The notes beneath the pieces are model-generated. The model did no database searches. It worked only from the letters and a program-made list of their open reading frames with translations, and was not told where the DNA came from. Below are positions 17,092-17,431 of a stretch of 64,000 bases of DNA, one piece after another (position 1 is the stretch's first letter; each line of letters starts with the position of its first letter). Origin of the DNA: Escherichia coli (GTDB taxonomy: Bacteria > Pseudomonadota > Gammaproteobacteria > Enterobacterales > Enterobacteriaceae); assembly GCF_001677475.2 (NCBI RefSeq), contig NZ_CP015229.1; one strand, 5' to 3'. The translations under genes were made by a program, and so were the position numbers.

Positions 17092-17119
17092 TGCAAACCA
17101 TGCCAAACCATCGTATAAT
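17092..17119 (+). promoter_or_regulatory. candidate sigma70 promoter (TGCAAA-16 bp-TATAAT)
   Basis: Perfect -10 TATAAT at 17114-17119, -35-like TGCAAA at 17092-17097. Confidence 0.4.
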
Positions 17120-17164
17120 TGCCACAAATTTAACGACAAGGCCGGAGTATATGAAAATTCTATT

Positions 17165-17395
17165 ATGCAAAATACCACCGCCTACGGCGAAGGGCTGCAA
17201 CTGGCGTTAATGGCAAATCGTGAATTCTGGTCAACATACGATCCGGAAGACAAATCAACAGCCCCCACAAAACACGAGGTAGTCAGTTTTTTGCGCTCGC
17301 GTGGTGCATCGAAAAATCTGGCTGAAAGCATCGACAAGGTGCTGAGGCCCACCAGCCTTAAATGCGGTGGGCGACCTAAGAAGTGGAAACGGTAA
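17165..17395 (+). CDS. hypothetical 76-aa protein with basic C-terminal tail
   Basis: ORF between candidate promoter and terminator; no clear SD; an overlapping 19-codon uORF (17151-17210) has GGAG just upstream. Confidence 0.4.
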   Translation: MQNTTAYGEGLQLALMANREFWSTYDPEDKSTAPTKHEVVSFLRSRGASKNLAESIDKVLRPTSLKCGGRPKKWKR

Positions 17396-17400
17396 TCACA

Positions 17401-17431
17401 ATAGCGGCCCTTTGCGGTCGCTATTTTTTTG
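17401..17431 (+). terminator. rho-independent terminator
   Basis: ATAGCGGCC...GGTCGCTAT stem followed by T8. Confidence 0.6.

Follow-up and report, generated by a model that had tools for sequence, protein, structure and literature searches.

The stretch of Escherichia coli DNA analyzed here (64,000 nucleotides of contig NZ_CP015229.1, assembly GCF_001677475.2; hereafter "the window," numbered from its first letter) carries a phage satellite of about 11 kb, a Gram-negative phage-inducible chromosomal island (PICI). In descriptions of such islands, the integration zone comprises int and alpA alone (PMC10111431), and many genomic islands with alpA are likewise described as having two genes there. 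In the window, int (15807-17066, + strand) and alpA (17566-17772, +) flank an interval, 17092-17431, in which an original prediction had listed a promoter, a 19-codon upstream open reading frame (uORF), an overlapping 76-aa open reading frame (ORF) and a terminator. All of these elements were found in the sequence, and the predicted features of the interval exceed what chance would be expected to produce. Judging by sequence, this is a module for integration and regulation that contains, between int and alpA, a third gene which is conserved and uncharacterised: the 76-codon gene at 17165-17395 (+), which appears in RefSeq as hypothetical protein WP_001181702.1.

The 499-bp spacer between int and alpA is present in 96 complete E. 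coli genomes at ≥90% identity and, down to 70% DNA identity, in 373 of 5426; every copy is chromosomal. Nine variants spanning this divergence were aligned (alignment A2), and the comparisons among variants that follow refer to them.

The Coding Frame

The original prediction had left it unclear which frame of the interval is translated. We regard the comparison of variants as settling this in favor of the 76-aa frame, which has every mark of a constrained, protein-coding frame under strong purifying selection. It is open in 9/9 variants, and within the 66-codon ungapped core it is the only frame free of stops in all nine, the five other frames each carrying stops in some. Variable columns fall at codon positions 1, 2 and 3 in the proportion 22/17/48. 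Against the clades with 70% identity, the proportion of nonsynonymous differences (pN) is ~0.17 and that of synonymous differences (pS) ~0.75, which is saturated; the ratio of nonsynonymous to synonymous rates (dN/dS) is 0.08-0.34 across variant pairs in this frame and mostly >1 in the other two forward frames. Homologues down to 65% protein identity retain the core G.QLAL..EFWSTYDPED..TAP...V..FL.S.G.S.NLA.S.D.V.RP...K.GGRP.KW.

The start of the protein is far less constant: among the E. coli short forms, residues 1 to 8-12 are replaced from one clade to another. In one clade with a replaced 5' end (L008, strain M7424), the RefSeq coding sequence is shorter (3174-3359, 61 aa) and begins at the internal Met of LALMANREFW; a GTG start with AAGGAG 8 nt before it suits the conserved frame better than the RefSeq start. 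Occasional frameshifted, truncated or fused variants also exist (P0005 and P0011-P0015, one record each). One of these, P0014, is a deletion fusion in which residues 1 to ~41 of the small protein run into the C-terminal portion of AlpA; it was deposited under the nematode Cooperia oncophora, presumably through bacterial contamination of that assembly.

Expression Signals

The candidate sigma-70-type promoter (17092-17119, +) consists of TGCAAA at 17092-17097, a 16-bp spacer and TATAAT at 17114-17119. Its -10 element matches the consensus at 6/6 positions and is kept in 9/9 variants (8 with TATAAT, 1 with TATAGT), two of which, L003 and L004, carry TGGTATAAT, an extended -10. The -35 element matches TTGACA at only 3/6 positions, as does an alternative, ATGCAA with a 17-bp spacer, and conservation is absent from the -35 region across the nine variants. 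A consensus promoter scan that flagged the terminator scored this site below threshold, because its -35 is only 3/6; to call the promoter "near-consensus" is thus an overstatement.

Downstream of the -10 lies a 20-bp leader block, CAAATTTAACGACAAGGCCG (17125-17144, +), which spans the predicted transcription start region and an AAGG element resembling a Shine-Dalgarno sequence. The block is near-invariant in 6/9 variants (L005 differs by one base) whose coding regions are only ~70% identical. Folding of the leader RNA gave no significant structure (z = +0.5 to -0.2).

The uORF (17151-17210, +; ATG at 17151, TAA at 17208-17210) encodes MKILLCKIPPPTAKGCNWR out of frame with the main ORF and overlaps its start. 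Both the 19 codons and the upstream GGAG of the original description are there; the GGAG (17144-17147), however, leaves just 3 nt to the uORF ATG, too little for a typical Shine-Dalgarno, and the conserved AAGG at 17138-17141, 9 nt upstream of that ATG, is the better candidate. The 76-aa ORF has no recognisable Shine-Dalgarno of its own. The first ATG downstream of the -10 never falls in the main frame: in 9/9 variants it uses one and the same alternative frame, 14, 17 or 23 nt before the main start, and its ORF overlaps that start; it is retained even in two clades whose 5' ends are unrelated replacement sequence. The encoded peptides are 19, 20, 23, 26 or 43 aa long among the variants and are similar only where the overlap forces them to be, and dN/dS in their frame is >1. 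Since the upstream ATG is conserved throughout while the peptide sequence is not, the uORF is probably a cis-acting translational leader and not a conserved peptide.

The gene is followed by a predicted intrinsic terminator (17400-17431, +), with a stem at 17400-17425 (10 bp, 5 GC pairs), a 6-nt loop and a run of seven T to 17431-17432. The stem in the window's clade, AATAGCGGCC...GGTCGCTATT followed by T7, folds at -14.3 kcal/mol (z = -3.3). The clade at 70% identity has a different hairpin, GAAGCGGCAGAAATGCCGCTT plus T7, folding at -15.1 kcal/mol (z = -3.6). The GC-rich hairpin and U-run bear out the earlier description of a clean terminator, and the predicted function has been kept between clades while the sequence of the stem changed.

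The interval had also been called an autonomous unit. The conserved -10, the coding ORF and a terminator that separates the gene from alpA agree with this, but int is not separated from the gene by any terminator, so that the two are likely to be co-transcribed as well, the more so as the gap after int is 6-133 bp in distant relatives. The 76-aa gene is best described as being served by its own predicted promoter and probably also reached by transcription from int.

The Protein Family

The protein is predicted to consist of a three-helix domain (residues ~9-60) and a basic C-terminal tail (61-76). AlphaFold2 models (mean predicted local distance difference test scores 79.5 and 82.1) show a small domain predicted with confidence and place helices at 9-22, 36-45 and 50-60, with an invariant FW..YDP.D..TAP loop between helices 1 and 2, and leave the tail flexible. 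The tail had been described as basic from the outset, and 7 of its 16 residues (RPTSLKCGGRPKKWKR) are. Its GGRPKKWKR segment has an AT-hook-like GRP core, in place of which many family members have GPRK, GRRK or GLKQNR; what is conserved across the family is a basic Gly/Pro-rich tail and not the GRP core.

The family was defined from the window protein's own relatives (alignments A1 and A3), with the window gene seeding the profile. A profile search of 1.84 billion cluster representatives returned 623 relatives at E ≤ 1e-3, 32 of them at E ≤ 1e-10. The closest, P0010, is 65% identical (E 4.8e-44), and long forms score from 1e-18 to 1e-6. One apparent member, P0016 (2552 aa, matched over 22 short stretches), was rejected as a repeat-driven false positive. 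The relatives are proteins of ~200-280 aa (median 220 aa) from Beta- and Gammaproteobacteria, in which the matched domain forms the C-terminal ~55-70 residues. We examined 160 family proteins (15 close homologues and 145 others from the best 150 of the 623 profile matches), and in 154 the domain ends no more than 15 residues from the C-terminus. The consensus is (W)PWG.H.T..L..L..AA..FW..YDP.D..TAPT...V..WL...GVS...AE..A.ILR...L.TG.R(K).

The N-termini of the long forms fall into 46 unrelated clusters among 131 proteins. Compared with AlpA by hhalign they reached a probability of 17.8% at best. One relative, P0017, has two tandem copies of the domain, and independent short forms occur in Salmonella, Gilliamella and Pseudomonas. 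By these comparisons, the window protein is a stand-alone copy of an uncatalogued domain of ~65 residues with a Gly/Pro/Arg/Lys tail.

No curated family covers it, and the gene is already annotated in RefSeq, as hypothetical. Neither the 76-aa protein nor a 39-aa alternative frame matched PHROG or NCBIfam, and PADLOC-DB 2.0 gave zero families at E ≤ 1 for both reading frames. The 76-aa protein had no match in Pfam even at E ≤ 10, HTH_17 (PF12728) and Phage_AlpA (PF05930) included, none of 36 aligned family members had a hit at E ≤ 0.001, and the model is all-helical. Long-form relatives searched against Pfam (P0029, P0059, P0105), NCBIfam (eight proteins) and PHROG (eighteen) gave coiled-coil noise only. 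A sequence-profile search of the PDB had a spurious best hit (E = 0.39), predicted viral structures held no match to the protein, and relatives in the AlphaFold database are all labelled "Uncharacterized." With tblastn, no match was found in 50,697 phage records and a single one in 72,556 plasmid records, in a 1.4-Mb record that is labelled a plasmid and is presumably chromosomal. A literature search by accession or locus tag found no paper on the protein.

The Family Gene in the Integration Zone

Synteny was sampled across the family by exact-protein look-ups. An integrase gene lies immediately upstream and co-oriented in all nine lineages with flanking upstream DNA, and the integrases are P4-type (Arm-DNA-bind_3, Phage_int_M and Phage_integrase domains). 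In E. coli (the window and L001-L010) int is directly upstream and alpA downstream. The same arrangement, with an AlpA/HTH_17 gene downstream, holds in Serratia (L015), in Sedimenticola (L016), in a gammaproteobacterial metagenome-assembled genome (L017, with an int-to-gene gap of only 6 bp) and in the lineages of P0029 (L011-L013), P0094 (L018), P0021 (L021, L022) and P0048 (L027, L028). The lineage of P0066 (L025, L026) is the exception: int is directly upstream and no AlpA/HTH_17 gene follows. A further locus, L019, also has AlpA/HTH_17 downstream of the family gene. Where both gene ends are called, int and the gene are 6-133 bp apart. A contig profile search with a narrower alignment and a strict pattern gave 3 loci only.

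Beyond alpA the islands diverge, carrying Bro-N, pRha, ASH, DUF927 or D5 primases, RepA helicase, ProQ, PerC or capsid genes. Since the family gene always follows int directly and, with the one exception, precedes alpA, it is on this comparative evidence a core component of one widespread type of integration zone, not cargo. The original prediction had placed it in an int-proximal cargo position, which does not fit a slot that one conserved family fills in nine independent lineages as far apart as E. coli and Betaproteobacteria.

Within E. coli, the gene co-travels with one int/alpA module (the tRNA-Pro type) and not with the EcCICFT073-family backbone. This int clade (≥80% coverage) is found in 440 E. 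coli genomes and the spacer in 373. EcCICFT073 itself, on the same backbone as the window island, carries another alpA allele and an int of only 24% identity, and the gene is absent from the 365 bp that separate the two. No copy of the family gene was found in EcCICFT073, EcCIMP1 or CP4-57 of K-12, the original AlpA system.

In the island of strain Nissle 1917 (L006; NZ_CP007799, 1310357-1311268), the small gene and alpA are intact, the protein being identical to that of O26:H11; the integrase is cut to its last ~70 codons, and the island lies at the roxA-phoQ site used by EcCICFT073 and not at tRNA-Pro.

The Region Upstream of alpA

Between the predicted terminator, which lies ~135 bp upstream of alpA, and alpA itself there is an operator-like near-palindrome (17460-17501) that contains four ACNGT sites and, at 17473-17488, the perfect 16-bp core ACCGTTTTAAAACGGT. 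All nine E. coli variants retain the near-palindrome, and a further ACCGT follows at 17520-17524. Half-sites of the GTACTGTTTTT type are also found upstream of alpA in EcCICFT073 and CP4-57, both of which lack the small gene. Since similar half-sites occur in such elements, the near-palindrome is probably a putative AlpA site and not a site of the small protein, and the candidacy of the 76-aa protein as its binder is weakened. Distant loci have lineage-specific repeats at the equivalent position, such as GGT(A/G)GGCA in L011 and AAACAGTGG in L015.

The Island

The island (15598-26620, ~11 kb) is integrated at a tRNA-Pro(GGG) gene (15540-15616, ARAGORN) downstream of yejM. Its attL (15598-15625, +) is the 3' end of this tRNA gene and is repeated at the other end as attR (26593-26620, +), a direct repeat 86% identical to attL. 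RefSeq annotates the P4-type tyrosine integrase as an "integrase domain-containing protein," and homologous loci show Arm-DNA-bind_3, Phage_int_M and Phage_integrase. The alpA product matches phrog_66 and phrog_2790 ("excisionase and transcriptional regulator") and is a helix-turn-helix (HTH) transcriptional regulator in RefSeq. After int, the small gene and alpA come a minus-strand YlcI/YnfO gene, an Icd-like gene, several small ORFs and DUF4222; then a D5-type primase (19410-21215), iterons, SSB, a major capsid protein (22242-23369) and a decoration protein; and finally a Xis-like gene (23732-24115), TerS (24305-24859) and a PerC-like activator. The AACTGTTCACC iterons, clustered as direct and inverted copies at 21214-21430 immediately after the primase gene, presumably mark the replication origin of the island.

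The organization that defines Gram-negative PICIs, which measure ~10-15 kb and lack lysis and tail genes, has been set out previously (PMC6092414; PMC10111431), and the prototype, EcCICFT073, has a capsid-protein homologue, a decoration protein and control by AlpA (PMC6092414). The window island shares the size of ~11 kb, the att repeats, the terminal int, the co-oriented alpA, the primase with downstream iterons and the few packaging genes, and its backbone has 65-97% DNA identity to EcCICFT073. By sequence, it is thus an EcCICFT073-type Gram-negative PICI. The label "P4-like satellite" given to it earlier has to be dropped: no psu, delta or sid was found in the island by PHROG or RefSeq annotation, and it has capsid, decoration, TerS and PerC-like genes, origin iterons and the EcCICFT073 backbone.

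Several further features were seen. The gene at 23732-24115 is a second excisionase/AlpA-like gene (phrog_2790, E 1.8e-48) in the late zone between the decoration gene and terS; EcCIMP1 likewise carries a second alpA, with a separate role (PMC11773190). Just inside attR is a tandem GGCT / GGCTGGCT repeat (26156-26217, about seven 8-nt units). A 287-codon ORF at 17777-18640 is probably not one gene: only its last ~80 residues match PHROG (transcriptional repressor), a stretch that RefSeq calls Icd-like in the equivalent region of related islands, and within the ORF RefSeq places the minus-strand YlcI/YnfO gene, with 18055-18405 (-) matching phrog_949. Strong minus-strand terminator-like hairpins lie at 17804-17831 and 17929-17954. 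Rfam searches of the region and of the whole window placed no RNA family inside the island, and no C4/isrK immunity RNA was detectable; the matches outside it were the MicF small RNA (51453-51546), naRNA4 (55206-55282) and the L25 ribosomal-protein leader (11799-11824).

Discussion

We propose that the 76-codon gene is a genuine part of the int-alpA module and that it has a regulatory role there, an explanation to which, as a whole, we would assign a probability of about 0.5. As to function, we infer that the protein is most likely a regulator or accessory factor of the int-alpA switch. The more precise reading, in which this small protein binds DNA or protein and thereby restrains alpA or excision, is tentative, and the odds lean against it.

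The background to this proposal is the way AlpA works. It is the auto-activating master switch of Gram-negative PICIs, whose helper phages raise alpA transcription, and ectopic AlpA alone leads to excision of EcCICFT073 and to uncontrolled, toxic replication; no repressor is known in these islands (PMC6092414). Some PICIs carry P4-like CI/seqA immunity RNAs (PMC10111431). In the window island, the small protein would be produced with Int in the integrated, uninduced state and, as an accessory binder of nucleic acid or protein, would check or direct excision and AlpA-driven induction. The predicted terminator could provide a second layer by insulating alpA against transcription from upstream, and the conserved overlapping uORF, with its better-placed Shine-Dalgarno, might keep translation of the main ORF low.

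A number of observations weigh against such a role. EcCICFT073, EcCIMP1 and CP4-57 regulate alpA and excise without any homologue, and the protein is therefore no universal requirement. The family does not conserve the GRP core of the tail, GPRK standing there in many members. Helix 3 (KNLAESIDKVL; AE..A.ILR in the family) is acidic and rich in Ala, which sets it apart from a typical DNA-recognition helix. As for DNA in the vicinity, the one obvious set of operator-like repeats more likely belongs to AlpA than to the small protein. Finally, the long-form loci have no clear terminator after the family gene, so that the insulation idea may be specific to E. coli.

The proposal can be taken a step further, by analogy. 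The family could be the missing maintenance-state master regulator of AlpA-controlled islands, a functional analogue of Stl from the Staphylococcus aureus pathogenicity islands (SaPIs). In that case the C-terminal domain, as the conserved part, would serve as the anchor to the control region of int and alpA, to AlpA or to Int; helper-phage proteins would be sensed by the hypervariable N-terminus, or by the short variable one of the E. coli form; and helper infection would lift the hold, so that AlpA switches the island on. We consider this extension doubtful.

Among the alternatives, the protein might instead be a directionality or architectural factor for the adjacent P4-type integrase, with the basic tail binding Int and/or att-arm DNA and AlpA acting mainly as an activator. 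The constant position of the gene directly after int, the 6-bp gap in L017 (which suggests an operon), its co-inheritance with the int/alpA module and not with the backbone, the resemblance of GGRPKKWKR to a minor-groove-binding arm and the tandem domain copies in P0017 are all in keeping with this idea, as is the finding that EcCICFT073 AlpA acts as an activator and did not control int (PMC6092414). However, related P4-type integrases of EcCIMP1 and CP4-57 work without the gene, a constitutive-looking promoter poorly suits an excision factor, and the island has a second Xis-like gene (23732-24115). The gene is moreover intact in Nissle 1917 despite the truncated int and persists without alpA in L025 and L026. 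On balance we judge a dedicated integrase factor unlikely.

The original prediction had favored a small autonomous anti-phage gene, on the grounds that P4-like satellites carry such genes in this slot; helper interference would be a related function. Satellites do carry defence genes near int. The hotspot of P4 is the stretch from int to psu-delta-sid (bioRxiv 10.64898/2026.02.27.708500), a different place from the int-alpA gap; the window island, in any case, is not P4-like. The gene has its own -10 and predicted terminator, as autonomous cargo would, and the hypervariable N-termini (the 46 clusters of the long forms and the replaced residues 1 to 8-12 of the E. coli forms) recall arms-race proteins. 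But the slot is occupied across distant taxa by one conserved family and not by varied cargo, the C-terminal domain is under strong purifying selection, the linkage is to the int/alpA allele and not to interference or late genes, and PADLOC gave zero matches. Defence cargo is thus a distinctly poor candidate.

The gene could also be the leftover 3' end of an ancestral gene of ~230 aa that drifts without function, given that the E. coli gene is only the C-terminal domain of the long forms, that occasional frameshifted, truncated or fused variants occur and that the main start has a weak ribosome-binding context. An ORF that is intact in 9/9 variants despite saturated synonymous divergence, with dN/dS of 0.08-0.34, largely refutes this, and conservation of the -10, the upstream ATG and the terminator, as well as the independent short forms in Salmonella, Gilliamella and Pseudomonas, makes a remnant very improbable. 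It is scarcely credible that the uORF peptide or a ~300-nt regulatory RNA is what functions here: the upstream ATG of all nine variants with its better-placed AAGG and the short predicted transcript, bounded by promoter and terminator, would suit such a product, but the peptide (19-43 aa, dN/dS >1 in its frame) is unconstrained, there is no Rfam match, the leader structure has z about 0 and the third-codon-position periodicity fits the 76-aa frame.

The gene is of wider interest. About 7% of complete E. coli genomes have it, O26:H11 and Nissle 1917 among them, as do hundreds of further lineages of Beta- and Gammaproteobacteria, and it was overlooked because the three elements known from experiments lack it. 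At 76 aa, and with natural modules with and without the gene on the same backbone, it is a cheap and tractable target, and work on it could show what controls induction, excision or immunity in satellites of this kind. The family also merits a new domain entry in the protein databases.

Comparison With Known Systems

Each of several known systems shares some features with the gene. The P4 defence cargo between int and psu likewise lies close to int in a phage satellite with its own expression signals; the present island, in contrast, is a PICI without psu, delta or sid, its slot holds a conserved syntenic family, and that family has no PADLOC match. In P4 immunity, a constitutive-looking promoter is followed by an efficient terminator just upstream of the lytic-programme genes, and leader ORFs are nested or overlapping, as for P4 kil/eta (PMC10111431); this logic resembles that of the interval, but no C4/isrK (CI/seqA-like) RNA is detectable here and the predicted transcript encodes a conserved protein. 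InrR of ICEclc, an integrative and conjugative element (ICE), is also a small domain-less protein, one that relays activation to a P4-type integrase promoter (PMC3395598). A function of this sort is what we propose for the small protein. InrR differs in belonging to a four-gene operon (orf95213-inrR) with its own bistably expressed promoter, PinR (PMC3395598); the two were compared by description only, and none of the NCBIfam models, those for ICE proteins included, matches the family.

AlpA, Vis and Xis resemble the small protein in size, in being basic and in position: their genes, too, come right after that of a P4-type integrase, within the integration zone of satellites and genomic islands. 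The small protein, by contrast, has no HTH_17 or Phage_AlpA match and is predicted to form a three-helix bundle and not a winged helix; and a bona fide alpA lies directly downstream, so that the small gene is an additional component and not a replacement.

The SaPI master repressors Stl and Rpr differ from the small protein in sequence and fold, between which no relationship was found, and in that the conserved domain of the family is C-terminal. The small gene is co-oriented with int and alpA, not divergent, the E. coli form is without the variable domain, and the related PICIs EcCICFT073 and EcCIMP1 have no homologue. Yet Stl and Rpr, like the small gene, are encoded next to int and just upstream of the excision-replication genes, and expression would be expected in the quiescent state. 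Stl also pairs a conserved with a highly variable domain, the variable part sensing helper-phage proteins (PMC6695447), and it is this pairing that the long forms of the family recall.

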